Shown piece after piece: positions 11,903 through 63,357 of a stretch of 64,000 nucleotides of DNA (position 1 is its first letter; the number at the start of each line of letters is the position of its first letter). The notes beneath the pieces were generated by a model that did no database searches, had not been told where the DNA came from, and worked only from the letters and a program-made list of their open reading frames with translations. The stretch comes from an uncultured Gammaproteobacteria bacterium (lineage in GTDB: Bacteria; Patescibacteriota; Patescibacteriia; SG8-24). A program made the position numbers and the translations under genes. The stretch spans positions 31,603-95,602 of the forward strand of contig CAZVED010000005.1 in the NCBI GenBank assembly GCA_964626205.1, in the 5' to 3' direction.

Positions 11903-12481
11903 ATGATTCTCTCCGACAAGGACATCAAGCAAGCGCTCGCCGATGGACGGATTTCCATTGATCCGTACGACCCGTCATACGTGCAGCCGGCCTCCGTGGA
12001 CCTCCGCCTGGACCGGACGTTCCTTATCTTCGACACGGTGAATCACTACGTCATCGACGTCCGCAAACCGGCGGACGACCTTATGCGCAAAGTAGTCATC
12101 AAAGATGATGAGCCGTTCATCCTCCATCCGGGCGAGTTCGCGCTCGGCGCCACCTTCGAAGAGGTCGGTGTGGGCAACGACATGGTCGGCCGCTTGGAGG
12201 GAAAAAGTTCGCTCGGCCGGCTCGGCATCATCATCCACGCCACCGCCGGCTACCTCGACCCAGGCAACAAACTCAAGATGACGCTCGAACTCTCCAACAT
12301 CGGCTCGCTTCCGGTGAAGCTCTATTACAAGATGCCGATCGCGCAGATGTCCTACTCCCCGCTTTCGAGCGTCTGTGAAAATCCGTACGGCAGCGGAAAA
12401 CTGCACTCCAAGTACTACGGCGCCCAGGAACCGCAAGCATCGCAGATGTGGAAAAATTTTGAAAAAAAGGATACTGAATGA
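11903..12481 (+). CDS. dcd: dCTP deaminase
   Basis: MILSDKDIKQALADGRISIDPYDPSYVQPASVDLRLDRTF... typical Dcd N-terminus and length. Its stop overlaps the next start (ATGA). Confidence 0.85.
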   Translation: MILSDKDIKQALADGRISIDPYDPSYVQPASVDLRLDRTFLIFDTVNHYVIDVRKPADDLMRKVVIKDDEPFILHPGEFALGATFEEVGVGNDMVGRLEGKSSLGRLGIIIHATAGYLDPGNKLKMTLELSNIGSLPVKLYYKMPIAQMSYSPLSSVCENPYGSGKLHSKYYGAQEPQASQMWKNFEKKDTE

Positions 12482-12879
12482 TCCGTATGGTGCTCCGCTC
12501 CCGCAACTCCATGGCCGCAACCGTCGCAGCAATCGCTGTCGGCGTGTTCGGCGCGCTACCAACGTTCGCGCAAACAACGATGGATTACGGCATGGACTAC
12601 GCTGAGGGTATCGGCCTCCCATCCGCACCGTTGCAGACCATCATCACCGGCTTTCTCCGCGCAACCCTCGGCTTCGTCGGCTTCGCCATGGTGCTCCAGA
12701 TCATGTACGCCGGCTACCTCATGATGACCCACGGCGACAAGGAAGAAGCGCGCGAGAAGGCCGTCGCCGCGCTTACGCAGAGCGTCGTCGGCTTTCTCAT
12801 CATCGCCACCGCCACCTCTACCGCGAAGTTCGTCGTGAATGCGGTGGTGAACGCGCAGAACGGCGGCTTCTACTCCTAG
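12478..12879 (+). CDS. TrbC/VirB2-like T4SS pilin family protein (signal peptide + two hydrophobic helices)
   Basis: Signal peptide ending ALPTFAQ, then helices LQTIITGFLRATLGFVGFAMVLQIMYAGYLMM and SVVGFLIIATATSTAKFVVNAV. RBS aagga. ATGA overlap with the dcd stop, and dut starts 5 nt after its stop. Confidence 0.65.
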   Translation: MIRMVLRSRNSMAATVAAIAVGVFGALPTFAQTTMDYGMDYAEGIGLPSAPLQTIITGFLRATLGFVGFAMVLQIMYAGYLMMTHGDKEEAREKAVAALTQSVVGFLIIATATSTAKFVVNAVVNAQNGGFYS

Positions 12880-25456: not shown

Positions 25457-25492
25457 ACCATCACACGGAACGAAAGGTACAGGTACGAAACA

Positions 25493-27370
25493 ATGGCCAT
25501 CATTCTCGGATTACTCCTCTTCGGCATCGCGATGATCGTCGCGGGTGTCGGCATGAACGCCGCCGGCATGGAGATCGGGGCACTCGCCACGAGCTTCCTG
25601 CTCGGCGGCGGAGGCCTCTTCGCCATCGGCAGCTCGACGCTGCTCATCTTCCAGAAGCTGTACGTGAAAACGACCGCCAACATGGCCTTCGTGCGTACTG
25701 GCACAGGCGGCTTCAAGGTCGTCATGGACGGCGGTGCGATTGTCATCCCCTTCCTGCACGAAATCATCTTCATCTCGCTCAGCACGCACAAGATCGAGGT
25801 CAGGCGCGAAGGAAAGGACGCATTCCTCACGAAGGATTTCCTTCGCGCAGACGTTCGTGCCGAATTCTACGTAAAGGTACCCGCAACGAGCGAGACCATT
25901 CGAGATGCAGCACGTTCGTTCACGGGCGGCATGCGGACCAGCGCTGACCTGCAAGTCCTCGTCGAGGAAAAGGTCGGATCCGCACTGCGTACGGTGGCAA
26001 ACGGCCTCACGCTCAACGAGCTGAACTCGAATCGCGAGCAGTTTAGGAAGACGGTGATGGAAGAGCTCACGGAGACCCTAACGAAGAACGGCCTCACTCT
26101 CGAAGACACGACCATCTCCAAGCTCGACCAGACCTCGCCGGAATTCCTGAGCATGGACAACATCTTCGATGCTCAAGGTCGTCGCGCCATCACGGTGCTC
26201 ACCGAAGCGGAGATGACGAAGACGAACGAGGCTCAAAGGAACGGCGAGCTTGCACGCAAGCAGCGCGACGTCGAGACCAGGAAGCTCCTGCTCGCGCAGG
26301 AGCAGGACCAGCAGATCGCCGAAGCCGAGCAGTCAGCGGCAATCACGCGCGCGAAGGCTGAACGCGAAGCCGAGGTGAAGAAGTCCGCAGCTGAACAGGA
26401 GCGCATCGCACGCGAGAAGCAGATCGAGACGCAGCGTCTCGTCCAACTTGCGGACGTGAAACGGCAGCAGGAGATCGAAGTCGCGGAACAGACGCGCCAG
26501 CAAGCCGTCGCCGTCGCGGCAGAGGCCCAGAAACAAGCCGTCGTCGCGGCGCAACAGCAGGTGGAAGTCGCCGAGCGCGCCAAGGAGCAGGCCATCGCGG
26601 TAGCTGAGACCCAGCGTACCCAGGCGGAGACCGAGCGCGCGGAGGCGGAAGCCAAGCGTGAAGAGGCCCGCCAGGCCATCACCACCGTCGAACAGGTCGC
26701 AGCAGCGGAGCGCGAGAAGAAGCGCGCCGTCATCGCAGCAGAAGGCGAGGCGGAGAAGCGCTACATCGAACAGAAGCGTACCGCGGACGCCAACGCCTAC
26801 GCCAAGACGGCCGAAGCCGACGCCGACAAGGCGGCGGCACAAGCCAGCGCGGCAGCGACCGTCGCCAAGGCGAACGCCGACCGTGACGCGCAGATCGCGC
26901 GCGCGGAAGGTCTCAAGGCCGAGGCCATGGTCCCCGTCGAGGTCAAGCGCAGCGAGGTCGAAGTCGACCGCGACCGCGTCGAGACCGTGCTCAAGCCCGA
27001 GCTCGCCGCGCGCGAGCAATCCGGCAAAATCGCCCAGGAGTTCGAGCTGGAGAAGCTGCGCATCGCCGCGATGCAGGTGGTCAAGACCGCCGTCGCCGAG
27101 CACTCCAGCAAGATCTTCCACGGCATGAACGCCAAGCTCTTCGGCACCCCCGACGACGTGGCGCGCGCCTACAAGAGCTTCCAGGACGGCAATGCCGGCA
27201 TGGAAGTCCTGAACGGCGTCATGGCCGCGCTGCCTCCGGCGGCGCAGGCGCAGGTCCAAGCGACGATCGCCGCCCTCGCGAAGAAGATCGGTGTCGAGCT
27301 GCCCGAGGCGACGCAAGCGCCCACCAAGGACGCCAGCGAAGACGCGGGAACCACCGAGAACGCCTCCTGA
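25493..27370 (+). CDS. SPFH/band-7 flotillin-like protein
   Basis: N-terminal TM helices, an SPFH domain, then a long Ala/Glu/Gln-rich coiled coil (EAEQSAAITRAKAEREAEVKK...), the typical flotillin (FloT/YuaG) architecture. Confidence 0.8.
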   Translation: MAIILGLLLFGIAMIVAGVGMNAAGMEIGALATSFLLGGGGLFAIGSSTLLIFQKLYVKTTANMAFVRTGTGGFKVVMDGGAIVIPFLHEIIFISLSTHKIEVRREGKDAFLTKDFLRADVRAEFYVKVPATSETIRDAARSFTGGMRTSADLQVLVEEKVGSALRTVANGLTLNELNSNREQFRKTVMEELTETLTKNGLTLEDTTISKLDQTSPEFLSMDNIFDAQGRRAITVLTEAEMTKTNEAQRNGELARKQRDVETRKLLLAQEQDQQIAEAEQSAAITRAKAEREAEVKKSAAEQERIAREKQIETQRLVQLADVKRQQEIEVAEQTRQQAVAVAAEAQKQAVVAAQQQVEVAERAKEQAIAVAETQRTQAETERAEAEAKREEARQAITTVEQVAAAEREKKRAVIAAEGEAEKRYIEQKRTADANAYAKTAEADADKAAAQASAAATVAKANADRDAQIARAEGLKAEAMVPVEVKRSEVEVDRDRVETVLKPELAAREQSGKIAQEFELEKLRIAAMQVVKTAVAEHSSKIFHGMNAKLFGTPDDVARAYKSFQDGNAGMEVLNGVMAALPPAAQAQVQATIAALAKKIGVELPEATQAPTKDASEDAGTTENAS

Positions 27371-43347: not shown

Positions 43348-45948
43348 ATGTCCGCTGATATCCTCGACAAATTCACCTCGCATCTCAAGCAAGTCCTCGC
43401 CAAATCCTACTCCCTCGCCGCGGAGACGGATTCCGCCACCATCGAACCGGAGCACTTGCTTCTGGCATTGCTACTGCAAAAAGGCAGCATTGGCGGCGAA
43501 ATCTTGAGGAAGGCGAACATGAGTCACGAGGAAGTCCGCCGTACGCTCCGCATGACTGGCACCGGAACGACGATACCAAAGAAGAAAAGCGTCGGCTCGG
43601 CAGCAAAACTCTCCACGGACTCGAAGCGCGTCATCGAAAAGGCCGTCCTCACCGCAAACACCAACCGGCACAAGTACGTCGGCACCGAGCACCTGCTCTC
43701 CGGCCTGCTAAAGATCGACTCCCCTGTGATCTCCGCGCTCATGACGGAACAGCTCATGGATGTCGCGGACCTCAAGGTGCAGGTCGAGACCATCCTCAAG
43801 AGCACGTCGAAGTTCCCGGAAATTACCGAGACCTTTGAGGTCGGCAAAGTACCGAAAGGCGGCGTCACCGAAGAAGACGCCGCGGAAGTTGACCTCATGG
43901 CAGAAAAGAAGCCAGAGCGTGCACAGAGCAAAAACCCAAAGTCCCCTGCCCTCGACTTCTTCTCCGTCGACCTCACGGACCCGGAGGTACAGAAGAACAT
44001 CGACCCGGTCATCGGTCGCGACAAGGAGGTGGAGCGCATGATCCAGATCCTCTCCCGCCGCCAAAAGAACAACCCGGTGCTCTTGGGCGAGCCGGGCGTA
44101 GGAAAGACTGCCATCGTGGAAGGTCTCGCCAAGCGCATCGTGCAGGGCGACGTGCCGGAAGTGCTCAAAAAGAAGCGTATCGTTTCGCTCGACCTCGGAC
44201 TCATGCTTGCAGGCACTATCTACCGCGGTGAATTCGAAGGTCGCATCAAACAGGTCGTCGACGAGGTGAAGAACGACCCTGACCTCATCCTCTTCATCGA
44301 CGAGCTCCACAACATCATGGGTGCAGGCTCCACGTCGGGCTCGCTCGACGCCGCGAACCTCCTCAAGCCGGCGCTCGCGCGTGGCGACATGCGCTGCATC
44401 GGCGCAACGACGCTCGCGGAGTACAAGAAGGACATCGAAGGCGATGGCGCGCTCGAGCGCCGCTTCCAGCCGATTGCGGTGAATCCGCCGACCGCCGAGG
44501 TGGCGAAAATTATCCTTCGTGGCCTCCGCAAGAACTATGAGCAGTACCATGGCGTGGAAATCACCGACGAGGCGATCGATGCCGCGGTCACCATGTCCGA
44601 GCGCTATATCACCGACCGCTTCCTTCCGGACAAGGCTATCGACCTTATCGACGAAGCCGCAGCATGTCTGAAGGTCGCCACGACGACTGACGACGGTTCC
44701 CGCCGCCGCGCGGAAGCGGGCGCGGAACTCGCGGAGCTCCGCACGGAAAAAGAGAAGGCTGTCACCTCCGAGAACTTCATCCACGCACTGGAACTCAAGA
44801 CCCGTGAACGCCATCTCGAGGAAGAACTCGTGCGTCTGGACATCTCCGCTGGCGACGAAGAAAAGAAGGTTCTCGGCCGCATCGACAAGACCGACATCGC
44901 GAAGGTCGTCGCGCGTGCGACCGGCATTCCGGCGCTCGATCTCCTCGCCAAGGAAAAAACGCGCCTCCTTAAGCTCGAGAACGTGCTCAAGGAGCATGTC
45001 ATCGGCCAAGGTGATGTCGTTGCGTCCGTGTCAGAAATCGTCCGGCGCGCGAAGTCGGGCATCTCGAACCCGAACCGTCCGCTCGCCTCCATGCTCTTCT
45101 TGGGTCCGTCCGGCGTCGGCAAGACCGAGCTCGCCAAGAAGCTTGCCGAGATTGTCTTCCAGGATCCTGACGCCTTGGTCCGCATCGACATGTCCGAGTT
45201 CTCCGAAGGCTTCTCCATGACCAAGCTCGTGGGTGCACCCGCCGGCTACGTTGGCTACAAGGAATCCACCAAGCTCACCGACGTCGTGAAGCGCAAGCCA
45301 CACTGCCTCGTACTCTTTGACGAAATCGAGAAAGCGCACGGCGATGTGCACAATCTTCTCCTCCAAGTCCTCGACGATGGCCACATTACGGACGCCACGG
45401 GCCGCAAGATCGACTTCAAGAACACCATCATCATCATGACGTCGAATGTCGGCGGAGCGCACCTGTCTGCAGGCAAGGGTGGCGGCATCGGCTTCTCGAC
45501 CTCCGAAGGCGGCGACCTCACCGAGGAAGAACTCGCGGACCAGCGCGCGGCCATCATGCAGGACGTCGAGCAGTCGTTCCGTCCGGAGTTCATCAACCGC
45601 ATCGACAAGATCTCGGTCTTCCGCCCGCTCGCCAAGGCAGACCTCGCGTCCATCGCGGAGCTCCAGGTCGCCGAGCTCTCCAAGCGTACGGAAGCCGATT
45701 TCGGCGTGACGCTCGGCATCAACCAGAAGGCCGCGGAACTCATCGCGGAAAAGAGCTACGACCCGCGCTACGGTGCGCGTGGCGTGCGGCGGCAGATCCA
45801 GGAACTCATCGAGACCCCGCTCGCCAAGGAGCTGCTGGAGGACCGCTTCGCTCCAGGTGAAACGGTAATGGTCGGCGTCATGGACGACTCCATCGCGTTC
45901 GCTAAACGCAGGACGAATGCCCGCACAAAGCACAAGCAGCAAGCCTAG
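43348..45948 (+). CDS. Clp-family AAA+ chaperone ATPase (ClpC/ClpB-like)
   Basis: Clp N domain repeats (EPEHLLLALL, GTEHLLSGLL), two AAA modules (GEPGVGKTA, GPSGVGKTELAK), sensor-2 GARGVRR. Confidence 0.88.
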   Translation: MSADILDKFTSHLKQVLAKSYSLAAETDSATIEPEHLLLALLLQKGSIGGEILRKANMSHEEVRRTLRMTGTGTTIPKKKSVGSAAKLSTDSKRVIEKAVLTANTNRHKYVGTEHLLSGLLKIDSPVISALMTEQLMDVADLKVQVETILKSTSKFPEITETFEVGKVPKGGVTEEDAAEVDLMAEKKPERAQSKNPKSPALDFFSVDLTDPEVQKNIDPVIGRDKEVERMIQILSRRQKNNPVLLGEPGVGKTAIVEGLAKRIVQGDVPEVLKKKRIVSLDLGLMLAGTIYRGEFEGRIKQVVDEVKNDPDLILFIDELHNIMGAGSTSGSLDAANLLKPALARGDMRCIGATTLAEYKKDIEGDGALERRFQPIAVNPPTAEVAKIILRGLRKNYEQYHGVEITDEAIDAAVTMSERYITDRFLPDKAIDLIDEAAACLKVATTTDDGSRRRAEAGAELAELRTEKEKAVTSENFIHALELKTRERHLEEELVRLDISAGDEEKKVLGRIDKTDIAKVVARATGIPALDLLAKEKTRLLKLENVLKEHVIGQGDVVASVSEIVRRAKSGISNPNRPLASMLFLGPSGVGKTELAKKLAEIVFQDPDALVRIDMSEFSEGFSMTKLVGAPAGYVGYKESTKLTDVVKRKPHCLVLFDEIEKAHGDVHNLLLQVLDDGHITDATGRKIDFKNTIIIMTSNVGGAHLSAGKGGGIGFSTSEGGDLTEEELADQRAAIMQDVEQSFRPEFINRIDKISVFRPLAKADLASIAELQVAELSKRTEADFGVTLGINQKAAELIAEKSYDPRYGARGVRRQIQELIETPLAKELLEDRFAPGETVMVGVMDDSIAFAKRRTNARTKHKQQA

Positions 45949-46054
45949 TGGCGGAAACAACGAGGCGGCATGGTCGCGCCAGCTTCAGCGTGACCGGAAG
46001 CAAGCAAAGCCGTCGGTAAACGCGACGGCCTTCCAAGGAGCACCGTTGCCCGCG

Positions 46055-46549
46055 ATGTCGAGCATGCCGTCATCGACAGAAGACCAAGATGGTCAGCAAG
46101 ACGCCGGTGGTGCGAAACGACGCTCTAGCGGACCCGTCACTGGCGCGCAGGTAAAGGCTGCTGCGGCAGCCTCCGGCGGAACTGCAAAACTAGCGACCAA
46201 AGCCATCGGCGAAGAACGCGTTGCCGCGGTTGCGAATGCCACCATCGGCGAGCTCACCGACCCCATCGGTCGTCAGATCTACTGGCTGCCGATGGCATGG
46301 ATGTGGGGCACGCTCTTCCTCGGCGGTTTCGTCGTCATTCCGCTGCATTGGATCTATATGATCCTCGGCCTCATCGGCGTCCCCCGTTTCAACGCATCGA
46401 TGGTCAAATGGTTCATGTTCATCGTGAACAACTGCATCTTCTTCAGTTTGCTTACCATCGCCTACATCATGATCATGGGGCTCCTCGAAATCACCCGTTG
46501 CGCATCCGACTTCTTCTGCGTCGTCGGCCTCATTCGCGAAGCGATCTGA
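46055..46549 (+). CDS. hypothetical membrane protein (start uncertain; the ORF runs from 45917, overlapping clpC)
   Basis: Hydrophobic helices WGTLFLGGFVVIPLHWIYMILGLIGV and FMFIVNNCIFFSLLTIAYIMIMGLL. First gene of a four-gene plus-strand cluster. Confidence 0.35.
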   Translation: MSSMPSSTEDQDGQQDAGGAKRRSSGPVTGAQVKAAAAASGGTAKLATKAIGEERVAAVANATIGELTDPIGRQIYWLPMAWMWGTLFLGGFVVIPLHWIYMILGLIGVPRFNASMVKWFMFIVNNCIFFSLLTIAYIMIMGLLEITRCASDFFCVVGLIREAI

Positions 46550-46590
46550 CGGCGTTCCGGATACGTCCGGCATAGGCTATACTTCCTCAT

Positions 46591-47817
46591 ATGGACTTCA
46601 AGCGTATCCTCCTCTTTATCGGCTTCACCCTTGCCGTCGGCGGCATGGGTTTTGCGCTCTATTTCTTCTTCTTCCGGACCGCTCCGACCGAGACCGTTCC
46701 GACCCCTCCAGGACAAGAACTCCCTGGCGGCGGAGATGGTCTGCCGAGTGCTGGCGAAGGTCCCGGCACCGGCGTCACACCGACTCCGACACAGCCCCCG
46801 GTCATCGAGCAACCAGGCGGCGCTGCCCAGTTCGCGGACGGCGGCCTGACCCAGGTCCGTACCGTCGCGACATCGTCCACGACTGGTGCCAGCGTCGGAA
46901 CGGACGGCAGCTTGAGCTTCTACAACCGTGGCGACGGTCGCTTCTACCGTATGAGTCCGGACGGCTCCATGATGCAGCTCTCTCCCCAGCAGTTCACGAA
47001 CGTTTCGGACGCCACGTTCTCTCCGCTCGGTACAGACGCCATCCTGGAATACCCCGACGGATCGAATATCTACTACGACTTCCGAACCAACCGACAAGTC
47101 ACGCTACCGAAACACTGGGAGGATTTCGCGTTCAGCGCGGATGGCGACAAGATCGCCGCGAAGAGCATCGGCCTCGACGAGACGAACCGCTTCCTCGTCG
47201 TCTCCGCTCCGGACGGTTCCGGTGCCCGTGCGGTACAGGAACTCGGTAACAACGCGGACAAGGTCACTGTCGCCTACTCTCCCACCGGACAATCCATCGC
47301 CATCTCCGAGACCGGGCGTGCACTCGGCCCGACGTCGCGCGAGGTCTTCTTCATCGGCCAGAACTCGGAAAACCTCCGCTCGATGACCATCGAAGGCGTG
47401 GACTTCCGCCCGTCGTGGTCGCCGGACGGCAGGCAGCTCATGTACAGCACCGCCAGCGCGAACAACGAGTACAAGCCGACACTCTGGATCGTCGATGCCT
47501 ACGGCGACGATATCGGCAGGAACCGCAAAACGCTGAACGTTTCGACATGGGCGGATAAATGCACGTTCGCTGACGCGGCGACGCTCTACTGCGGCGTTCC
47601 ACGCTCGCTCCCGCGAGCTGCCGGTCTGCAACCGTCCTTGTTCGAAGACATTCCGGATGACATCTTCCGTATCGACCTCGCTACAGGGCTCCAGACCCGC
47701 GTCGCGGTTCCGGAAGGGTCCCGTACCGTCGGCAGCATCATGGTCACACCGGACCAAAGCAGCCTCTACTTCACGGACAAAACGACCGGCATCCTGAACG
47801 AGATCCAGCTCCGCTAA
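46591..47817 (+). CDS. TolB-like beta-propeller (PD40 repeat) protein with an N-terminal membrane anchor
   Basis: N-terminal TM helix, Pro/Gly/Thr linker, repeated SPDGS / SPTGQ / SWSPDGRQ PD40 motifs. Confidence 0.6.
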   Translation: MDFKRILLFIGFTLAVGGMGFALYFFFFRTAPTETVPTPPGQELPGGGDGLPSAGEGPGTGVTPTPTQPPVIEQPGGAAQFADGGLTQVRTVATSSTTGASVGTDGSLSFYNRGDGRFYRMSPDGSMMQLSPQQFTNVSDATFSPLGTDAILEYPDGSNIYYDFRTNRQVTLPKHWEDFAFSADGDKIAAKSIGLDETNRFLVVSAPDGSGARAVQELGNNADKVTVAYSPTGQSIAISETGRALGPTSREVFFIGQNSENLRSMTIEGVDFRPSWSPDGRQLMYSTASANNEYKPTLWIVDAYGDDIGRNRKTLNVSTWADKCTFADAATLYCGVPRSLPRAAGLQPSLFEDIPDDIFRIDLATGLQTRVAVPEGSRTVGSIMVTPDQSSLYFTDKTTGILNEIQLR

Positions 47818-47829
47818 CCCTGAACCGTC

Positions 47830-48498
47830 ATGCGGCAATCCTGGCTCGCTCTCGCTTTCCTCATCCTCATCAGCGCGCTCGTGCTGGCGGCATTCGCCAT
47901 CCGCACGCTCCCCGCTCCGCAGCGCGATACCGCGGAAGACGCCTCCGACCTTCCTGCCATCGACGTGCCGAGCGTCGATTTCGCAAACCCGTCCAAAGGC
48001 GCGCTCGATGCCGTTGTGCGCATCGTCCAGTACGGCGACTTCCTCTGCGCCTCCTGCGCACAGCTTGCACCAGACCTCGACCGACTCCTCGAAGACTACG
48101 CCGGCTCCGTCCGCGTCGTCTGGAAGGACTTCCCCAACACCTCCGCACACCCGGGTACGGATACGGCTTCCATCGCCGCACGGTGCGCACAACGCCAAGG
48201 CGCGTTCTGGGAGTATCATGACCTGCTCCTCATCGACCGCATCGCGGTAACGGAAGCATCTCTTGTTTCCGCAGCAGAAGCGCTCGGCTTGGACGCGGAG
48301 AGCTTCCGTACCTGCCTCATCACGAAAGAAACCGTCCCCATGATCGACCGCGACTTCGTGGAGGGGCAGATTCTCCGCGTGGACGGTACGCCGTATCTCT
48401 TCGTGAACGACCGCCGTGTGTCCGGCTCCATCTCCTACGACCAGCTTGCCCAGATCGTGGAGGCGCTTGGTGCGGTTCCTGTCACTCCATCCAACTGA
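47830..48498 (+). CDS. DsbA-like thiol:disulfide oxidoreductase (thioredoxin fold, CxxC = CASC)
   Basis: N-terminal TM anchor, VVRIVQYGDFLCASCAQ, DsbA-like length and C-terminal pattern. Confidence 0.65.
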   Translation: MRQSWLALAFLILISALVLAAFAIRTLPAPQRDTAEDASDLPAIDVPSVDFANPSKGALDAVVRIVQYGDFLCASCAQLAPDLDRLLEDYAGSVRVVWKDFPNTSAHPGTDTASIAARCAQRQGAFWEYHDLLLIDRIAVTEASLVSAAEALGLDAESFRTCLITKETVPMIDRDFVEGQILRVDGTPYLFVNDRRVSGSISYDQLAQIVEALGAVPVTPSN

Positions 48499-48505
48499 TG
48501 CCCGT

Positions 48506-49630
48506 ATGCCGCTCTTCCGCCGCGCTATCGCGACCCTTGCCCTCGCTGTCGTCCTCATGACGGCAGCGTTCGGCGTGCTCGTGCCCACCACACTCGCGCA
48601 GGTGCAGGTCATCGAGCCGACACTCAGCATTCCGATACCAAATCTGAAATTCAGCGACGCCGAGGTCATCGACGCAGCATCCGGAAACGCCGAAGGTCTC
48701 GGCATCTCATGGATTGCAGACTACGTCCAAGCTGTCTACGACTACGCCATCGCCATCGCGGGCGTGCTCGCTGCCACCATGATGATGATTGGCGGGTTCC
48801 AGTATCTCACCGCCGGCGGCGACGGCGGAAAGGTTAGCGGTGCCAAGAAGCGCATCGGTGACGCACTCGTCGGTCTCATCCTCGCGCTCGGAACGTATGT
48901 CATTCTCACGACGGTCAGCGACCGGCTCGTAGCACTCCAGCGCATCGACGTCGAGATGGTTGAGCGGCAAATGTTCGCCGTCACGGACCTGCACGATGCG
49001 GGAGCGATTGCGCCCGATACGGGTGGCGGGGCTGCAGCGAAAGGCAGTCCGGTGTGTACCAACACGGAAACCTGTACCCCGATCTGCAACTTGCCGCGAA
49101 GTCAATGGCCAAAGACGGGAGGGAACGTCTTGCCCGTGGAGCAGACCGTCATCATCGGTCGCTTGCCAGGCATCAGCTCCGGGCATTCCTTGCGTGTCGC
49201 GCCAGAAATGCAGACCGCACTCGAACGCGCTGGAAGAATCGCTCAGCAGCGGGGGTATACGATCAATATCGGATCTGCATACCGCCCGCTGGAAAACCAG
49301 ATAGCAGCGGCGTGCGAAAAGATCAAGCAGGGCTTGGGGGATCAAATCGGTAGCATCGTCGCCCGCCCAGGAACGTCCAATCACGGACATGGTAAGGCGG
49401 TCGATGTCGTGCTCATGCGGGATGGAAAAAAGGTGACGACATCTGCATCCAGCCAGCAATACGACGAGGTCTGGCGTGACCATGCGATGGTTCTCGCGGA
49501 GATCATGGCCGAAGCCGGACTTGTCCGATATAGCCGAGAAATCTGGCATTTCGAGATCCCGACCGGTGAAGCGTGCCGCTGCAAAGGAGCCGCTTGCGCA
49601 TTCCCTCCTCCCAAAGCCCCTAGTTGTTGA
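48506..49630 (+). CDS. fusion protein: TrbC/VirB2-like pilin N-terminal domain + C-terminal M15 (VanY-like) zinc D,D-peptidase domain
   Basis: Signal peptide ...TTLAQ, two pilin-type helices (YAIAIAGVLAATMMMIGGF / ALVGLILALGTYVILTTVS), then the M15 motif SNHGHGKAVDV (SxHxxGxAxD). Eight Cys in the extracytoplasmic part. The track ORF from 48416 has an N-terminal extension. Confidence 0.6.
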   Translation: MPLFRRAIATLALAVVLMTAAFGVLVPTTLAQVQVIEPTLSIPIPNLKFSDAEVIDAASGNAEGLGISWIADYVQAVYDYAIAIAGVLAATMMMIGGFQYLTAGGDGGKVSGAKKRIGDALVGLILALGTYVILTTVSDRLVALQRIDVEMVERQMFAVTDLHDAGAIAPDTGGGAAAKGSPVCTNTETCTPICNLPRSQWPKTGGNVLPVEQTVIIGRLPGISSGHSLRVAPEMQTALERAGRIAQQRGYTINIGSAYRPLENQIAAACEKIKQGLGDQIGSIVARPGTSNHGHGKAVDVVLMRDGKKVTTSASSQQYDEVWRDHAMVLAEIMAEAGLVRYSREIWHFEIPTGEACRCKGAACAFPPPKAPSC

Positions 49631-49672: not shown

Positions 49673-51085
49673 ATGAAAAACTCCCACCTCTTCGTCTGTT
49701 CCAACTGCGATGCTCAGTCCCCCAAATGGACCGGGCAGTGTCTTGAGTGCGGCAAATGGGGCACCGTGACGGATGCCATGGAAAGCGGCGCGGCGGCGGC
49801 TCCCAAGGCCCATGCCATCGCGGCGGCAACCACGCGCCCGGCGGCCCTGGAGACGCTCAAAGGAAAGACGGCTGGCAACGCTCCCCGCGTCGCCACCGGC
49901 ATCGGCGAGCTTGACCGCGTCTTCGGGGGCGGTGTCATCGCAGGCTCCGTCACGCTCTTGGGTGGCGAGCCGGGCATCGGCAAATCCACTATCTCGCTCT
50001 CTCTCGCCTCACGCTTCGGTGCGCAAGGTAAGGACGTCGTTTACGTCTCCGGCGAAGAGTCCGCCGCGCAGATTGGAATGCGTGCGGACCGTCTTAAGCT
50101 CCCCACGGACCGTGTCTCGTTTCTTTCCCATACCGACACCGACACCGTCATCGCAACGCTCGCCAAGCACAAGCCCGCGCTCGCCATCATCGACTCCATC
50201 CAGACCATGACGGACTCCTCCGTCCCTTCGGCTGGCGGGTCCACTGCGCAGATCCGTACCGTCACCGCCAAGCTCGTCGGTTTCGCCAAGGAAACCGGTA
50301 CCGCACTCATGATCATCGGCCACGTCACCAAGGACGGAACGGTCGCCGGGCCAAAGACCTTGGAGCACCTCGTAGACACAGTCTTCTCTTTCGAAGGCGA
50401 GCGCACGCACGGCCTCCGCGTGCTCCGCGTGCTCAAGAATCGCTTCGGTGCCACAGACGAAGCCGGCATGTTCGAAATGACGGAGGAAGGTCTACGTGAG
50501 GTGAAGAACCCTTCCGCCTACCTCCTGGACGAACGCCAAGGAACAGTCCCCGGCTCCGTCATCACGGCGGTATTGGAAGGTAGCCGTCCGGTACTCGTAG
50601 AGGTGCAGGCATTGGTGCAGAAAACCGGCTTCGGCTTCCCCACACGCCGCGCCAACGGTATCGAGCAGGCGCGCCTCGAGATGCTCCTCGCGGTCTTGAG
50701 CCGTCGTGGCGGCGTCGACCTCTCGCAGTATGATGTCTTCGTGAACGTCGTCGGCGGCATCCGCATCAAGGAGCCTGCGGCGGATCTCGCGGTCGCGGCA
50801 GCACTCGTCTCCGCCTATGCCAACGTCCCCATTCCTGCAGACTCCGCGGCATGGGGTGAAATCGGCCTCGGCGGCGAAGTGCGCGCCGCAGTGGGAGCGG
50901 ACCGGCGTCTCGCGGAAGCCGGCAACCTCGGCATGAAGGACGTCCTCACCTCCCTCCCCCGCAAGGTTCAGCCGAGGCTTCCGAAAGGCATTGGCATCAC
51001 GGACATTCGCTCCGTCGCCGACCTCGCACAGCACATCACCGCAACAACGAAAGCATCCATGGAAAAAAAGAAAGCCGCTGCATGA
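49673..51085 (+). CDS. radA: DNA repair protein RadA
   Basis: N-terminal zinc finger (CSNCDAQSPKWTGQCLECGKWGT), Walker A GEPGIGKST, KNRFG motif, Lon-like C-terminal domain. Confidence 0.93.
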   Translation: MKNSHLFVCSNCDAQSPKWTGQCLECGKWGTVTDAMESGAAAAPKAHAIAAATTRPAALETLKGKTAGNAPRVATGIGELDRVFGGGVIAGSVTLLGGEPGIGKSTISLSLASRFGAQGKDVVYVSGEESAAQIGMRADRLKLPTDRVSFLSHTDTDTVIATLAKHKPALAIIDSIQTMTDSSVPSAGGSTAQIRTVTAKLVGFAKETGTALMIIGHVTKDGTVAGPKTLEHLVDTVFSFEGERTHGLRVLRVLKNRFGATDEAGMFEMTEEGLREVKNPSAYLLDERQGTVPGSVITAVLEGSRPVLVEVQALVQKTGFGFPTRRANGIEQARLEMLLAVLSRRGGVDLSQYDVFVNVVGGIRIKEPAADLAVAAALVSAYANVPIPADSAAWGEIGLGGEVRAAVGADRRLAEAGNLGMKDVLTSLPRKVQPRLPKGIGITDIRSVADLAQHITATTKASMEKKKAAA

Positions 51086-51102
51086 TGCAGCGGCTTTTGC
51101 GT
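51068..51102. terminator. bidirectional terminator between radA and the convergent minus gene
   Basis: aaagccgctgcatgatgcagcggctttt. Confidence 0.65.
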
Positions 51103-55517: not shown

Positions 55518-55594
55518 TGGTGCACCCGGCAGGAGTCGAACCTGCGACCTTCAGCTCCGCAAGCTGACGCTCTATCCAGCTGAGCTACGAGTGC
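55518..55594 (-). tRNA. tRNA-Arg (anticodon GCG as read)
   Basis: The minus strand gcactcgtagctcagctggatagagcgtcagcttgcggagctgaaggtcgcaggttcgactcctgccgggtgcacca folds as a canonical cloverleaf. Anticodon loop tt-GCG-ga; encoded CCA. Confidence 0.8.
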
Positions 55595-56356: not shown

Positions 56357-56445
56357 GGAGGGCTGCGCCGAATGGTAAGGCACCAGTTTGCTAAACTGTG
56401 ACGCCGCAAGGTGTCTTCTGGGTTCGATCCCCAGGCCCTCCGCCA
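56357..56445 (+). tRNA. tRNA-Ser (anticodon GCU), class II with long variable arm
   Basis: ggagggc acceptor, anticodon loop tt-GCT-aa, variable arm tgacgccgcaaggtgtcttc, T-arm ctgggttcgatccccag, 3-prime gccctcc-g-cca. The spurious antisense ORF translates to the classic GIEPRR artefact. Confidence 0.8.
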
Positions 56446-56528
56446 TGAATCGCTCACCCCGCAAGGGGTGGGCGCTTTCATATGAGGTCATGGCCCGAAG
56501 GGGTCGGGAATGGTATTTTAATGGACAT

Positions 56529-56616
56529 GGAGGGGTGGCCGAGCGGTTGAAGGCACCGGTCTTGAAAACCGGCAGGGCGCAAGTCCTCGTGAGTTCGAAT
56601 CTCACCCCCTCCGCCA
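56529..56616 (+). tRNA. tRNA-Ser (anticodon UGA), class II
   Basis: ggaggggtggccgagcggttgaaggcaccggtcttgaaaaccggcagggcgcaagtcctcgtgagttcgaatctcaccccctccgcca. The antisense ORF gives the GVRFELT artefact. Confidence 0.88.
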
Positions 56617-58862: not shown

Positions 58863-59674
58863 CATCCCCGCAACACCGTCACGGCCGTCACACGAAGCGC
58901 TCCGGCATCCCGGAGCGCTTTTGCGCATGCCGCGAGCGTCGACCCTGTCGTCATCACATCGTCCACGATGACGCACGACTCCGGCGCCGCGCGCAGGGAC
59001 GTGACCGCGCCACGGACGTTCTCCGACCGCAACACGCTCTCCCCCATCTCTACCTGCGTCTTGCTCGAGTACGCACGCCGGAGCAATGTGCGGTCCACAG
59101 CATGGCCGGTCGCGGCAGCAAGCGTCTCCGCGAACACGTCCGCCTGATTGAACCCACGCATCCGAAGCCTCAATGGATGCAACGGTGACGGCACAATGAC
59201 CGCCTCTGTGTCTCCCAACGTGCGAAGCTCCTCACCACGCCCGGCAAGGAACGCGGCGAACAGGTCCGCAAGCGCCGTCCCAGCCTCCTCGATGCCCTCA
59301 TACTTGTAGGCCTGTAGCAGTTCGCGTAGCAGCGGGTCGTTGTAAGGAGCCATGCAAAGGACACCATCTAGGCCTTCCACGTGAACAAGAAATGGTGTCG
59401 CGTTGCGTTCCAGGCCAGGCCCCTCCGGGGAGGCTAAAGTCGGAGCCGCCTCCCCGGAGGGGCCTGGCCTGGGGCGTAAGGCACCGTCAAGAGATAACGA
59501 AAAGCCTCCGATGGTGGAGGCTTTTTTTATCTCGAGACACGCAGCGCAGAGCAGAGATCCTTCCATGCGGCACCCCAGGCAAAAATGCGGAAATAGCACC
59601 GGACCGGCGGATGCAACCGCCGTCCGTACGATCCTTATTGCCGTGGTTGCCACTCCGCGGAATCCGCCATCCAT
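58862..59674 (-). CDS. comF: ComF family phosphoribosyltransferase-domain protein carrying an in-frame palindromic insertion
   Basis: N-terminal LFPHFCLGCRMEGSLLCAACLEI (ComF zinc finger), LDGVLCMAPYNDPLLRELLQAYKYEG, PRT motif VIVDDVMTTGSTL. The start codon is uncertain and overlaps the upstream gene. Confidence 0.8.
   Translation of the reverse strand: MDGGFRGVATTAIRIVRTAVASAGPVLFPHFCLGCRMEGSLLCAACLEIKKASTIGGFSLSLDGALRPRPGPSGEAAPTLASPEGPGLERNATPFLVHVEGLDGVLCMAPYNDPLLRELLQAYKYEGIEEAGTALADLFAAFLAGRGEELRTLGDTEAVIVPSPLHPLRLRMRGFNQADVFAETLAAATGHAVDRTLLRRAYSSKTQVEMGESVLRSENVRGAVTSLRAAPESCVIVDDVMTTGSTLAACAKALRDAGALRVTAVTVLRG
59410..59472. repeat. perfect inverted repeat (24-bp arms, 15-nt spacer) embedded in frame inside comF
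   Basis: ccaggccaggcccctccggggagg-ctaaagtcggagccg-cctccccggaggggcctggcctgg. Translated as ALRPRPGPSGEAAPTLASPEGPGLER in ComF. Confidence 0.8.
59498..59528. other. terminator-like hairpin (A-run, GCCTCC-gatggt-GGAGGC, T7) located inside the comF reading frame
   Basis: aaaagcctccgatggtggaggcttttttt on the plus strand. The minus strand also has an A7-hairpin-TTTTCGTT. It encodes KKASTIGGFS of ComF. Confidence 0.6.
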
Positions 59675-60267
59675 TCGCCGTTCGTCTTGATGAGTTCGAG
59701 GATGATGTCCTGATAATACACCTCGGCGGCCGTGGTGCCGGACGCATCCTGGCGGCGCTGGGTGCTGACGCGCACCGTAGCAGTCCCCGCATCTTCGTCA
59801 AATGTCACGATGGTCGGAGCAAGCGCGCGGGTCGTGACACCGTAATGGACTGTAGTGTCGCCGGAGGCGGCCCGTGCGTCCGCCACATACTGGTCGGCCC
59901 ACGCCTGCATGGACGGGGTCATGACCGTCCGTAAATCCGTGATGTTCACGAAGTCCGTCTGGTTGGAGAAGCTGCCGAACCGTTCGGTGAATGCCGCCGC
60001 GAAACGCAGGATGGCTGATGTGTCGTCCGGCGGCGCCGTCGGCGCCGTTTCGGTCGGGGCTGGCTGCACCGGAGCCGGAGTCGCTCCGCGATTAGGATCG
60101 TTGGCTTCCGGAAGCCCTGTCGTCGACTGCCCGTTCCCCTGCGCCGTGACATCCACGACCGGAACCGTCGGAGCAGGACGCTGCATCAGGAAGAACAGGG
60201 CGATAGCCAACAAGAGGAGGATGAGCGCGATGGCGATACCAAGAAGGACTTTCTGTCGTCGTGTCAT
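59635..60267 (-). CDS. membrane-anchored protein downstream of VirB4 (possible VirB8/TcpC-like periplasmic domain)
   Basis: N-terminal TM helix (LLGIAIALILLLLAIALFFL), Pro/Thr/Ala-rich linker, C-terminal domain of about 120 aa. Position in the T4SS-like operon. Confidence 0.4.
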   Translation of the reverse strand: MTRRQKVLLGIAIALILLLLAIALFFLMQRPAPTVPVVDVTAQGNGQSTTGLPEANDPNRGATPAPVQPAPTETAPTAPPDDTSAILRFAAAFTERFGSFSNQTDFVNITDLRTVMTPSMQAWADQYVADARAASGDTTVHYGVTTRALAPTIVTFDEDAGTATVRVSTQRRQDASGTTAAEVYYQDIILELIKTNGEWMADSAEWQPRQ

Positions 60268-60276
60268 AGGCGTCGG

Positions 60277-62226
60277 TTATGCGGTAGGTGGTGTTCCGGC
60301 TGGGGCAGCTCCTTTAGCAGCGGCGTTCGCAGCATCCTGCCGTGCGATCTCGGCTTCGTACTCCTTCTTTGCCTCCGCGATCTCGATGAGCTGTTGCGGG
60401 TTCGTGGTGACGATCTGGTCTTCGGTGTAGCTCGCCACGACCTTGATGGCCGCGTGCTTATTGCCAGCGAAGAAGATACCTTCGCCGACACCACCCTCGA
60501 GGAGAAGGAACTTCTCGCCCTCCGTGAGAAGGAACGTCTTGGCGACGTTGTCGATGGCCGCCGGCGACTGCTTGAGCAGCATCTGCATGGCGGAGTTCGT
60601 CACGATGGCCTGGCCGTAGGGCGAACGCAGGAAGTCGTTCACGTCCTGGGTGATCGTCGTGACACCGAGGAAGTACTTACGGCAGCGCTTCACGAGCGCG
60701 AAGATGAACTTCGCCGAGTCCTCGTGCTGCATGAGCCACCATGCCTCGTCGATGACGAGAATGCGCTTCTTCTTCTCCGAACGGACGACGTTCCAGATGT
60801 AGTTGACGACCGCGTAGATGGCGAGTGGGCGAAGTTCGTCTTCCAAGTCACGGACGCAGAACGTGACGAGCAGGTTATTCATCTGCACGGTCGTCGGCGA
60901 GTTGAAGAGACCGGCGAACGTACCTTCCGTGAACTTCTTCAGCTTGATGACGATGTCCTTGGTGCCTTCCATGCCATCGAGCACTTCCACGAAGTCCTGC
61001 ATGACCGGCGCTTCGACCTGCGAAAGATCGGCATCGGCAGTGATGTCCTTCTTGGCGTAGGTTTCAAGCAGCGCACGGTCGAGGACGGAGTCTTCCTGCG
61101 GCGTGACGGTGCCGAGCATGATGCGGAGCAAACCCTTGGTCGTGATGACCGCCGAGCGGATGATGTCTTCGGTGGATACCTCCTCGCCCACCGCGCGCGG
61201 CAGGTCGAACGGGTTGATCTTAGCGTCCGACGCGAGCGAGAGGTTCACGTACGTGCCGCCGACGGCATCCGAGAGGTGCTTGTATTCCTGTTCCGGGTCG
61301 ATGACGATAACGTCGGTCCCCAGCATGAGCGACCGCAAAATCTCGAGCTTCACAGTGTACGACTTACCCGCACCGGAGGTCGCGAACACGATGTAGTTCG
61401 CGTTCTGCATGGAGAAGCGGTCGAAGAGGATGAGGCTGTTGTTGTGGCGGTTGATGCCGAACAAGATGCCGTTCTCGGACGTAAGGTCCGCGGAGATGAA
61501 CGGGAACGACGACGCAATCGGGCTCGAGTTCATGTTGAACGTCGTCATGAGCTCGTCGTTACCGATCGGTAGCGTGGAATTGAAGCCCTGCTCCGCCTGA
61601 TAGAATACGCGCTTCGTGTAGATGAGCTTTGACCCGAAGACGGACTCCACTTCCTCGCTGAACTTATCGAGGTCTTCCTTGGTCTTTGCGTACATCGTGA
61701 CGTACAACGCAAACTGGAAAAAGTGCTCCGTCCCCTGGGAGAGCGTGTCACGCAGCCATTCGATGTCCTGGAGCGCCTGTTCACGGATGGGGTCGCGTGG
61801 CTTTCCGGACTCCGAATCCGAAACGATCTGCGCTTCGAGCGTACCGACCTTCTTCTGCAACTGCTTCAGGATGACATTAGCCTTGACCGGGTAGAAGAAC
61901 ATCGCCACGTCGATGGTCTTGTTCATGTTGATGACCGGCGTGAACCAGCCGAGCGACAGGTGGCGCGGATAGGACACGACGAACACCGTCCGAACGAAGC
62001 TCTCACCGAGCTGCAAGAACGTCGGCTGGATCTGCATCCCTGCGGGCGAGATGAGATCCTTGATGGAGACGACGCCTTTGCGATAGATGCGCTCCTCTTC
62101 GAGCAACGTCTTCTGTTCCGCGAGCTTTGTCTGCTCTTCTGCCTGCTTCTTCCCCTTCCCCGAAAGGTCCTTCGGGTCTTTGGGGACGCTGACCTGTGTG
62201 CCGAGTTGTTGCGGTGTGAACGCCAT
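60277..62226 (-). CDS. virB4: VirB4/TraC/CagE-family T4SS ATPase, C-terminal 650-aa portion (linker + ATPase)
   Basis: LISPAGMQIQP...VRTVFVVSYPRHLSLGWF, Walker A FATSGAGKSYT, Walker B RILVIDEAWWLM. Start MAFTPQQ at 62226; the 703-aa track ORF is over-extended. Confidence 0.88.
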   Translation of the reverse strand: MAFTPQQLGTQVSVPKDPKDLSGKGKKQAEEQTKLAEQKTLLEEERIYRKGVVSIKDLISPAGMQIQPTFLQLGESFVRTVFVVSYPRHLSLGWFTPVINMNKTIDVAMFFYPVKANVILKQLQKKVGTLEAQIVSDSESGKPRDPIREQALQDIEWLRDTLSQGTEHFFQFALYVTMYAKTKEDLDKFSEEVESVFGSKLIYTKRVFYQAEQGFNSTLPIGNDELMTTFNMNSSPIASSFPFISADLTSENGILFGINRHNNSLILFDRFSMQNANYIVFATSGAGKSYTVKLEILRSLMLGTDVIVIDPEQEYKHLSDAVGGTYVNLSLASDAKINPFDLPRAVGEEVSTEDIIRSAVITTKGLLRIMLGTVTPQEDSVLDRALLETYAKKDITADADLSQVEAPVMQDFVEVLDGMEGTKDIVIKLKKFTEGTFAGLFNSPTTVQMNNLLVTFCVRDLEDELRPLAIYAVVNYIWNVVRSEKKKRILVIDEAWWLMQHEDSAKFIFALVKRCRKYFLGVTTITQDVNDFLRSPYGQAIVTNSAMQMLLKQSPAAIDNVAKTFLLTEGEKFLLLEGGVGEGIFFAGNKHAAIKVVASYTEDQIVTTNPQQLIEIAEAKKEYEAEIARQDAANAAAKGAAPAGTPPTA

Positions 62227-62227
62227 A

Positions 62228-62923
62228 CTAGATGCTGTTCTGGTTATCCGACACGCGCAAGTCGCCGACGTCGCGCATCTTCTGCGAGTCGAGGAGTTCC
62301 GGGTTGTACGCGCGATAGTAGAGCTCGATGAGGCTCTGCGTGTCGAGCATGACAGACTTGAGTCCCATGGACTGAAGATTGCCAGCAATGCCGTTCACAC
62401 GCGACAGCAGCTGTTCCTTGCGGTCACGGAAACGCTTCTCCGCGAGCTTCACGATAGCGGCCGGCTGGAACGCCTCGCTCAGACGCGCCCAGAAACCCTT
62501 GGACTTGTCCGACAGCGGATTATACGGCACGACGACGAAGAACTGCTTCTGCATGATCTGTCCGATATCAACGAGTTCCGAGACGAACCCACGATAATCC
62601 GCGATCTGCAGCTTGAGCAGTTCGTTCTTCTGGTTCTTCTGCGCCTCAGCAAGCCGCTCCATATACGCCTCGATGTTGAGACGGCGTGACTGAATGACGA
62701 TCTGCAACGGGAACTCGAGCGAGTTCATGAAGCTGATGTACTGCTGGATAATGGCATTCTGCTCGTCTTCGGACTTGAGCGCAAAATTGATGGATGCCAC
62801 GAGCAAAACCGCGCGAAGCGTGCCGTCTTTCATGACGACGACGTCTTCGCGGACTTCCGCGATGTCGAGATACCGTTGTGTCGCAGGTCCCGGTTTCGGT
62901 CCCGCAAGTTTCTTCGACTGCAT
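62228..62923 (-). CDS. VirB4 N-terminal domain encoded as a separate 231-aa ORF (split gene or frameshift)
   Basis: DIAEVREDVVVMKDGTLRAVLLVASINFALKSEDEQNAIIQQYISFMNSLEFPLQIVIQS matches the N-terminus of Gram-positive VirB4 homologs (PrgJ/TraE type). Stop TAG, 1 nt, then the ATG of the ATPase ORF in the +1 frame. Confidence 0.7.
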   Translation of the reverse strand: MQSKKLAGPKPGPATQRYLDIAEVREDVVVMKDGTLRAVLLVASINFALKSEDEQNAIIQQYISFMNSLEFPLQIVIQSRRLNIEAYMERLAEAQKNQKNELLKLQIADYRGFVSELVDIGQIMQKQFFVVVPYNPLSDKSKGFWARLSEAFQPAAIVKLAEKRFRDRKEQLLSRVNGIAGNLQSMGLKSVMLDTQSLIELYYRAYNPELLDSQKMRDVGDLRVSDNQNSI

Positions 62924-62925
62924 GG

Positions 62926-63357
62926 CTATGCTTCAGGGTTATAGACGCCGCCCGTGTTGACGATCATCGTCAGCTCGGAGAGCTTGGAGGCTTCCACGCG
63001 CGCCTTGAGCTTTCGCGTGGGTGGGGGCGGAGGCGGGGGCTCATTGAGAATCGCCTTGAGCTCCGCGTCGGTAAGGTCCTTGTCCCAAACGCGGCGTGGC
63101 GGCTTCCTCCATGTCTGGATGAGGTTCAGCAGGAAAAAATGGAACGGCTGACCGTTGATCTTCGTGAACGCGAGAATACCGCCGAGCGCGAGCTCGATGA
63201 CGCCGACCGTGATAAACAGCGCGAAATCGAAAAGCTGAAACGCGATAAACATGAACATCGCCGTGACGAGCAGAATGACGAACTGCCGCGTCGTGATAGG
63301 ACCGATGATCTTATCTTCGACGTCGATGAATTGCGGAACAACGTATTTCTGCGCCAT
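62926..63357 (-). CDS. PrgI family (VirB3-like) small membrane protein
   Basis: MAQKYVVPQFIDVEDKIIGPITTRQFVILLV matches the PrgI-family N-terminal signature. Two TM helices, poly-Pro C-terminal part. Its stop is 2 nt before the VirB4 N-domain start. Confidence 0.7.
   Translation of the reverse strand: MAQKYVVPQFIDVEDKIIGPITTRQFVILLVTAMFMFIAFQLFDFALFITVGVIELALGGILAFTKINGQPFHFFLLNLIQTWRKPPRRVWDKDLTDAELKAILNEPPPPPPPTRKLKARVEASKLSELTMIVNTGGVYNPEA

Follow-up and report, generated by a model that had tools for sequence, protein, structure and literature searches.

Within a window of 64,000 nucleotides (nt) of contig CAZVED010000005.1, which is the whole stretch of DNA analysed here, we characterized the last of four consecutive genes (genes 1-4), which encodes a pilin-type module joined in one protein to an M15 peptidase domain. 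The product of this gene 4 (48506..49630, stop codon included, + strand) is a protein of 374 amino acids (aa). It is well supported as a predicted extracytoplasmic, probably disulfide-containing M15 peptidase with peptidoglycan as putative substrate, which is tethered by a pilin-family hairpin and has a conserved partnership with a DsbA-type oxidoreductase and a PD40 propeller. It belongs to a large family of Patescibacteria proteins, and its architecture is common in the databases and not unique to this genome. The translation start is the ATG at 48506, as the product is 100% identical to the database protein P0001; the upstream GTG at 48416 was rejected on the same ground.

The original prediction had described a signal peptide and pilin-type helices fused to a VanY/M15 domain with about eight Cys residues, and this was borne out by Pfam, by the AlphaFold (AF2) model of the full protein and by the residue count, which is exactly eight. 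In the model, which was built on 10 homologues, a signal helix is followed by a helical hairpin, a disordered linker and a C-terminal domain of M15 fold. The signal peptide comprises aa 1-31 (48506..48598; this and all following parts of gene 4 on the + strand), with a helix at aa 3-24 and a putative cleavage site after an LAQ motif. The T4SS_pilin-type module covers aa 32-157 (48599..48976), which is the envelope of its match to the hidden Markov model (HMM) of the module (2e-53). In this module, the N-flank motif IPIPN.KFS is followed by helix 1 (aa 68-102, 48707-48811 in the AF2 model), a basic loop (TAGGDGGKVSGAKKR), helix 2 (aa 107-136, 48824-48913) and the C-flank, and the hairpin is modelled with a predicted local distance difference test score (pLDDT) of up to 94. 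A low-complexity linker at aa 138-178 (48917..49039) is predicted to be disordered (pLDDT below 50), and the Cys-rich VanY/LdcB-like M15 zinc peptidase domain identified by Pfam, AF2 and Foldseek occupies aa 179-374 (49040..49627). The mature protein would have about 343 aa, including a 217-aa extension formed by linker and enzyme.

The assignment of the C-terminal domain to M15 peptidases was confirmed at several levels. Pfam VanY (PF02557) matched aa 230-349 (49193-49552) at 9.9e-10 and 38.8 bits, above the cut-off of 25, and Peptidase_M15 matched at 7e-7. The zinc ligands H-x6-D plus a distal His and the catalytic Glu in ExxH are all present, in the motifs S291-N-H293-G-H-G-K-A-V-D300-V (49376-49408) and E345-I-W-H348 (49538-49549); in an alignment of 10 homologues (A2), H293 and D300 do not vary, while E345 and H348 reach a conservation of at least 90%. 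These motifs align to SEH..D and EEWH of DacB/LdcB, and the pneumococcal DacB/LdcB matched gene 4 at 2.4e-4 in a phmmer search against PDB sequences. The C-terminal domain was modelled with a pLDDT of 80-97, and Foldseek matched it to VanXYc, VanX, LdcB and VanY with a probability of 1.0 and E-values from 9e-6 to 2e-3 (structures 4mut, 1r44, 4mph and 5hnm), that is, to the LAS/Hedgehog-DD-peptidase fold. Because gene 4 scored 25.2 bits against the LdcB model NF041194 of NCBIfam, for which the cut-off is 275, we classify it by profile score as a relative and not an equivalog of the LdcB/DacB LD-carboxypeptidase. M15 is the sole enzyme domain of the protein, and no SLT/muramidase, CHAP or NlpC domain was found with Pfam. 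All eight Cys residues (aa 184, 190, 194, 270, 357, 359, 364 and 374) lie in the C-terminal domain, and the motifs SNHGHGKAVDV, CTNTETCTPICN and CRCKGAACAF were all found in gene 4.

To identify the N-terminal module we relied on profiles. Gene 4 itself matched the Pfam family T4SS_pilin (PF18895) at aa 69-128 with 2.3e-4 and 21.6 bits. The profile of alignment A1, which contains the pilin module from 16 homologues with a mean column identity of 48%, retrieved stand-alone PF18895 pilins at E-values as low as 4e-28, and several of these pilins matched TrbC/VirB2 (PF04956) as well. PF18895 was matched by 100 of the 102 nearest family representatives, and TrbC by two of them, at 1.5e-13. Conversely, an HMM made from stand-alone short PF18895 pilins found gene 4 at 8e-35, so that the resemblance of the N-terminal region to VirB2-type pilins, as originally predicted, holds at the profile level: by these matches, the module is a member of the Patescibacteria VirB2-like pilin family. 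Within this family, additional conserved flanks set it apart as a subfamily of its own: P.L.IPIP..FS precedes helix 1, and INPxLV follows helix 2. Gene 4 has the VirB2/TrbC layout of a signal peptide and two hydrophobic helices with a short basic loop; with about 343 aa after processing, it is not the small mature protein, consisting of the hairpin alone, that is expected of such pilins. A search of PDB sequences with the module profile found no pilin, and comparison with solved structures is uninformative for so simple a fold.

The same HMM of short pilins found a second protein of the window at 2e-9. This stand-alone T4SS_pilin-family protein of 133 aa (12478..12879, + strand) matched PF18895 at 1.3e-6 and 28.8 bits, above the cut-off, and the NCBIfam model of the Mbov_0395 pilin-like protein from a Mycoplasma integrative and conjugative element at 38.3 bits (cut-off 40). 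The gene 4 module had been called highly similar in layout to this protein. The layout is indeed shared and the short-pilin HMM links the two, but their sequences gave no BLASTP alignment and a weak hhalign match in the same register; 'highly similar' is better replaced by membership of the same family through intermediates. The gene of the stand-alone pilin lies between those for a dCTP deaminase (11903-12481, 4-nt overlap) and a dUTPase (12884-13318), among genes of nucleotide metabolism and well away from those for the type IV secretion system (T4SS) of the window.

The family to which gene 4 belongs is large. An exhaustive search with the module profile returned 68,614 cluster representatives at E≤1e-3, 417 of them at E≤1e-30, and nearly all of the best 150 of these 417 are 350-900 aa long. 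Among the single-module proteins (n=139), 131 carry a C-terminal extension of at least 150 aa, and 39 have at least 100 aa before the module; a further 18 proteins have 2-8 tandem pilin modules. A Pfam census of 102 members identified Peptidase_C39_2 in 12, VanY in 10, SLT and Peptidase_C70 in seven each, NlpC/P60 in five, glucosaminidase and M23 in three each and Amidase_2 in one; many others have Cys-rich domains without an assigned type. Cys makes up about 4% of the non-pilin parts, with a median of nine in the C-flank, as opposed to 0.06% of the module (10 in 16,936 residues). The continuous pilin-VanY architecture itself occurs in independent assemblies at 31-52% identity (P0002-P0009, P0011). 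One homologue is named in the database merely as a 'D-alanyl-D-alanine carboxypeptidase family protein'. The tandem-module proteins include P0054-P0063 and P0079, the extremes being illustrated by P0059 (820 aa, eight modules) and P0054 (618 aa, four modules and an SLT domain); some of them end in a hydrolase. Searches of sequenced plasmids and phages with tblastn gave only weak ddpX-type M15 matches and no pilin module, and a plasmid or phage origin of the fusion was rejected because of this absence of the module.

To follow the genomic context of the fusions, we compared 30 loci (L001-L030), found by scanning species-representative genomes and carrying for the most part Patescibacteria or Parcubacteria labels, with the window proteins by tblastn. 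The closest related locus is that of Parcubacteria SG8_24, whose VirB4 is 89% identical. The order ClpC, small membrane protein, PD40, DsbA, pilin fusion(s), RadA recurred in L002, L003, L004, L013, L016 and L019, with variants in L014 (HtpX at the left), L005 and L001. The co-occurrence of the fusion with DsbA and PD40 in related genomes was thus confirmed. In half of the loci (15 of 30), a pilin-fusion gene is immediately preceded by a DsbA gene, and since six of these 15 (L010, L011, L017, L025, L026 and L030) lack PD40, ClpC and RadA, this arrangement supports a specific DsbA-fusion partnership. The earlier suggestion that the upstream DsbA oxidises the fusion's cysteines is strengthened by this recurrence and by the unequal Cys content of the two parts of the fusions; that gene 3 itself forms the disulfides is inferred.

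The fusion slot holds one to three genes, the enzymes of which vary between genomes. We found an alpha/beta-hydrolase-like-pilin-VanY protein, a set of pilin-M23, pilin-VanY and a third fusion without a recognised enzyme domain, a GDSL-pilin-SLT protein, a weak pilin-glucosaminidase match below the Pfam cut-off, and fusions with unassigned Cys-rich C-terminal domains. A classical toxin-immunity arrangement was dismissed, as neither the intervals between tandem fusions nor the one before radA could accommodate an immunity gene. Some fusions are double-headed, with a second enzyme-like domain before the module and thus ectodomains on both sides of the hairpin (the genes at about 5090-7040 in L002 and L003, P0007, and L019:5341-7125). 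One such N-terminal domain has about 300 aa and a GHSxG-type motif, and that of L019 is a GDSL/SGNH acylhydrolase (2e-9). Patescibacteria-type pilin fusions were also found in records labelled 'uncultured Gammaproteobacteria' (L001, L003, L007, L013, L014, L017, L019), Acutalibacteraceae (L005) and Vicinamibacterales (L011), most of them with DsbA alongside and several with the full ClpC-to-RadA synteny; automatic naming or mis-binning has probably given these records the wrong organism.

In the window, whose G+C content is about 60%, we told real genes from antisense open reading frames by the G+C content of each codon position. The resulting run of co-directional genes on the + strand begins with a ClpC-like AAA+ chaperone (43348..45948), the conserved left border of the module, with 46-54% identical syntenic genes in L002, L003, L004, L013 and L019. 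It continues with genes 1-4 and ends with RadA/Sms (49673..51085), the conserved right border. The gaps between genes 1-4 are 41, 12 and 7 nt, in agreement with the four co-directional genes 7-41 nt apart of the original prediction, but the tightly spaced run is longer than was stated there and extends from ClpC to RadA, the latter being 42 nt from gene 4. Because the single strong terminator-like hairpin of the region (51071-51097, 12-bp stem) directly follows radA and none was found within the clpC-to-radA run, genes 1-4 are probably co-transcribed with their flanks. The genes clpC and radA are neighbours in many Firmicutes and are parted here, so the four-gene module seems to have been inserted into what was ancestrally a clpC-radA pair.

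Gene 3 (47830..48498, + strand) encodes a DsbA-like thiol:disulfide oxidoreductase with an N-terminal membrane anchor. It matched Thioredoxin_4 (1.7e-21, 77.6 bits) and DSBA (1.2e-17, 64.7 bits), both above the Pfam cut-offs, and its CxxC motif is C73-A-S-C76 (48046-48057), so that the DsbA-like CxxC protein noticed directly upstream of the fusion proved to be one, 7 nt from gene 4. Gene 2 (46591..47817, + strand) encodes a PD40-repeat beta-propeller (Pfam PD40, 6e-7) preceded by an N-terminal membrane anchor and a Pro-rich linker, and is 39-56% identical to the syntenic genes in L002-L005, L013, L014, L016 and L019. It had been described as TolB-like. The propeller stands, but a TolB orthologue was ruled out by a score of 36.5 bits against the TolB equivalog model TIGR02800 of NCBIfam (cut-off 343.15), the match spanning only two to three blades. 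Gene 1 (45917..46549, + strand) encodes a small membrane protein whose N-terminal part is long and hydrophilic and whose C-terminal part is hydrophobic. Translation may begin at either of two ATG codons, one at 45917, with which the first 32 nt of the gene would fall within the end of clpC, or one at 46055. Gene 1 matched no family in Pfam or NCBIfam, and tblastn gave no match at E≤1e-5 in the related loci, where an open reading frame of 166-330 aa with the same hydrophilic-then-hydrophobic layout occupies the position between clpC (htpX in L014) and PD40; thus, position and layout are conserved. Without a family match and with poor conservation, gene 1 could not be supported as a DsbB/VKOR-type partner of DsbA.

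The T4SS core cluster of the window (59635..63357) lies on the - strand about 10 kb downstream of gene 4. It comprises, all on this strand, a PrgI/VirB3-like protein (62926-63357; Pfam PrgI, 4.6e-8), a separate TrsD-like VirB4 N-domain protein (62228-62923; NCBIfam TrsD, 1.6e-7), the VirB4 ATPase (60277-62388, exact start uncertain; Pfam P-loop_TraG, 1.4e-25) and a 210-aa membrane protein (59635-60267) that may be VirB8-like, with a weak match of NTF2/SnoaL type (SnoaL_4, 2e-3). No hydrolase gene adjoins virB4 in the window. Placement of fusions in virB4 clusters was seen in L006, L020 and L022-L024. In L006, virB4, two small genes, a pilin-Cys-rich fusion, PD40 and a pilin-VanY fusion form one co-directional run; in L020, the order is PrgI, TrsD-like, VirB4, small membrane protein, pilin fusion and then PD40; and the pilin-NlpC/P60 fusion of L022 and the pilin-CHAP fusion of L023 follow virB4 at a distance of 1-2 kb. 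As a separate observation, the virB4 gene of L020 (2190-4180, Patescibacteria bacterium AH-259-L07) has an in-frame insertion of about 660 aa right after the Walker A lysine (GSGK|S...VHN|SFFAKLE); its LAGLIDADG-like motifs make it look like an intein with a homing endonuclease, and it has no counterpart in the VirB4 of the window.

The T4SS of Patescibacteria is of the monoderm MPF-FATA type (PMC12102498), and VirB2/TrbC-like pilins occur in these bacteria in arrays and near virB4 (PMC12102498; PMC10633639). In Southlakia epibionticum such a pilin array is essential (PMC12102498; PMC10633639), and the neighbours of virB4 include essential genes for lysozyme-like/cysteine-peptidase and M15B-fold proteins (PMC10633639 supplement; PMC12102498). 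VirB2-like pilins have been seen as an anomaly for a single-membrane bacterium (PMC12857230).

Putting these data together, we propose that the gene 4 product would be exported by the Sec pathway, cleaved by signal peptidase and then retained in the membrane by its VirB2-like hairpin, in a predicted topology with the N-flank outside, the basic loop inside and the C-terminus outside. The flexible linker of about 40 aa would position the enzyme domain in the wall, where it would act as a cell-surface VanY/LdcB (M15) zinc peptidase on peptidoglycan stem peptides. The membrane-anchored DsbA, whose gene ends 7 nt before gene 4, would form disulfides from the eight Cys residues of this domain, and the PD40 propeller and the small membrane protein may be co-inherited partners serving as scaffold or regulator. 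The pilin module would be more than an anchor: it may recruit the enzyme to the machinery of type IV secretion or of the pilus, so that the fusions open peptidoglycan locally where the machine or the pilus crosses the wall, the conserved module being shared across interchangeable hydrolases (M15, SLT, NlpC/P60/CHAP, C39-like, M23, glucosaminidase and amidase). For this recruitment of hydrolases to the T4SS/pilus machinery by the pilin module, in a VirB1-like role, we see even chances.

Several points weigh against such a coupling in the window. The module lies outside the T4SS cluster, 10.6 kb from virB4 and on the opposite strand to it, between the housekeeping genes clpC and radA, and gene 4's own PF18895 score is under the Pfam cut-off (21.6 versus 26.6 bits). 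VanY/LdcB-type enzymes trim stem peptides and do not open the sacculus, which is a better fit to wall maturation. The localisation, activity and T4SS dependence of the gene 4 product are predictions from sequence and models. The link of this particular fusion to the T4SS is circumstantial.

In a rival explanation, the fusions would be ordinary hydrolases of wall maturation or division, here an LdcB/DacB- or VanY-like LD-/DD-carboxypeptidase, and the pilin hairpin would be a standard anchor co-opted without any T4SS role. VanY and the pneumococcal DacB are themselves membrane- or lipid-anchored, and the nearest solved relatives of gene 4 are the wall-maturation enzymes LdcB/DacB. The conserved, chromosomal clpC-radA location speaks for such a housekeeping autolysin, as does the run of genes uninterrupted by a strong terminator-like hairpin. 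It also agrees with the presence of several fusion paralogues of different bond specificity per genome, as in a set of autolysins, with no immunity-like gene between tandem fusions. However, the module keeps its mean column identity of 48% (A1) across wholly different partner domains, which goes beyond the need of a passive anchor; fusions and PD40 are embedded in virB4 clusters of other lineages; and proteins with 2-8 tandem pilin modules exist. We regard this explanation as the main rival, possible though rather improbable.

The original prediction had suggested a tip or anchor of the filament, or a contact-dependent lytic effector, and both roles are hypothetical. A more far-reaching alternative starts from the polymerisation of the module. 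VirB4 would extract it from the membrane and polymerise it together with stand-alone pilins, and the enzymes, displayed on the outside or at the tip of the filament, would digest the wall of a host or neighbour as contact-dependent effectors. The fused enzyme classes are used as antibacterial effectors, and in solved conjugative pili both pilin termini point outward, which makes a C-terminal cargo geometrically conceivable. Variable enzymes on a constant N-terminal module give a layout like that of polymorphic effectors, the enzyme content of one syntenic slot differs between genomes, and fusions are close to virB4 in several lineages. In addition, Patescibacteria are thought to be epibionts, and the function of their T4SS has been called 'completely unknown' (PMC11665869), with essentiality found in the sole species tested (PMC10633639). 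Against this, polymerisation of the module is hypothetical, and proteins with an ectodomain of 200-300 aa at one end or at both may not fit the tight packing of a pilus. Nor is lysis an obvious outcome of an M15 domain of carboxypeptidase type. Sequenced plasmids and phages lack the module, and the context in the window genome is a housekeeping one. This alternative appears unlikely to us. The same low credence attaches to its boldest form, in which the module would be a T4SS handle that VirB4 builds into a filament, and enzyme-armed pili with interchangeable disulfide-hardened hydrolases would drill through host and own peptidoglycan; if true, this would explain the essentiality of the T4SS and pilins for epibiotic growth.

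A mis-assembly or frameshift that joins a pilin gene to a separate VanY gene, which was only an a priori possibility in a metagenome-assembled genome, can be discarded almost with certainty: the frame is continuous from 48506 to 49630, and many independent homologues refute it by having the same architecture, with the fusion present in independent assemblies (31-52% identity), in 10 or more of the 102 family representatives and at six loci with conserved synteny.

Gene 4 and its family can be compared with known systems. Among the closest are the VirB1-type hydrolases of monoderm systems, PrgK (pCF10), TraG (pIP501), CwlT (ICEBs1) and TcpG (pCW3), which are likewise membrane-anchored, extracytoplasmic and associated with a VirB4-type T4SS. 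Their enzyme classes (SLT, NlpC/P60, CHAP and M23) are shared with those relatives in the fusion family that adjoin virB4. In contrast to their single generic transmembrane helix and lytic transglycosylase or CHAP domain, gene 4 has a conserved VirB2-like pilin hairpin as anchor and an M15 VanY/LdcB-type peptidase, and it is Cys-rich, paired with DsbA and encoded away from virB4. With the PF18895 VirB2/TrbC-like pilins of Patescibacteria, gene 4 shares the Pfam family and the order of signal peptide, helix, basic loop and helix. The described members are stand-alone proteins of about 100-190 aa, whereas gene 4 has the 217-aa enzymatic C-terminal extension, and members of its subfamily have the flanks IPIP..FS and INPxLV, frequently together with a large ectodomain at the N-terminus; for both groups polymerisation is hypothetical. 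The LdcB/DacB and VanY/VanXY enzymes (MEROPS M15B) have the same fold, zinc ligands (H-x6-D, H) and catalytic Glu in ExxH, and all are extracytoplasmic and membrane-tethered, but identity to them is 18-27%, the profile scores are far under the NCBIfam equivalog cut-offs, and gene 4 adds eight Cys and the pilin-module anchor. Polymorphic effectors, such as the wall-targeting effectors of type VI and type VII secretion systems and the X-Tfes of the Xanthomonas T4SS, also combine a constant N-terminal module with interchangeable peptidoglycan-degrading domains, and their locus content varies; unlike them, the fusions have no adjacent immunity genes, their constant module is an integral-membrane hairpin and not a soluble secretion signal, and the locus is a housekeeping one.

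The original prediction knew of no described pilin with a covalently joined wall hydrolase. We likewise found no description in the full-text literature searched, where absence is no proof that none exists, but the architecture is common in sequence databases. The searchable text of the papers on the Patescibacteria T4SS describes stand-alone VirB2-like pilins, pilin arrays and separate VirB1-like hydrolases, and contains no pilin-hydrolase fusions (PMC10633639; PMC12102498; PMC11665869; PMC12857230). In a large conserved branch of the pilin family, the pilin is covalently linked to wall hydrolases of seven or more classes; these fusions travel with DsbA and a PD40 propeller and lie inside virB4 clusters in some lineages. 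This offers a concrete, testable link of a pilin module to cell-wall breaching and may show how Patescibacteria open cell walls. As a candidate gene set, the fusions, PD40 and DsbA could be approached genetically in cultivable Saccharibacteria. Where the 'VirB2' genes of Patescibacteria genomes are counted by profile, the numbers may include many multidomain enzymes.

Two further features of the window were recorded. Between a recG-like helicase and the T4SS region lie a tRNA-Arg(gcg) gene on the - strand and adjacent tRNA-Ser genes (gct, tga) on the + strand, at 55518-55594 and 56357-56616. The genes at 24734-27370 make up a typical NfeD-SPFH pair, in which a 625-aa SPFH/Band-7 protein comes after a YqiJ/NfeD-like membrane protein.

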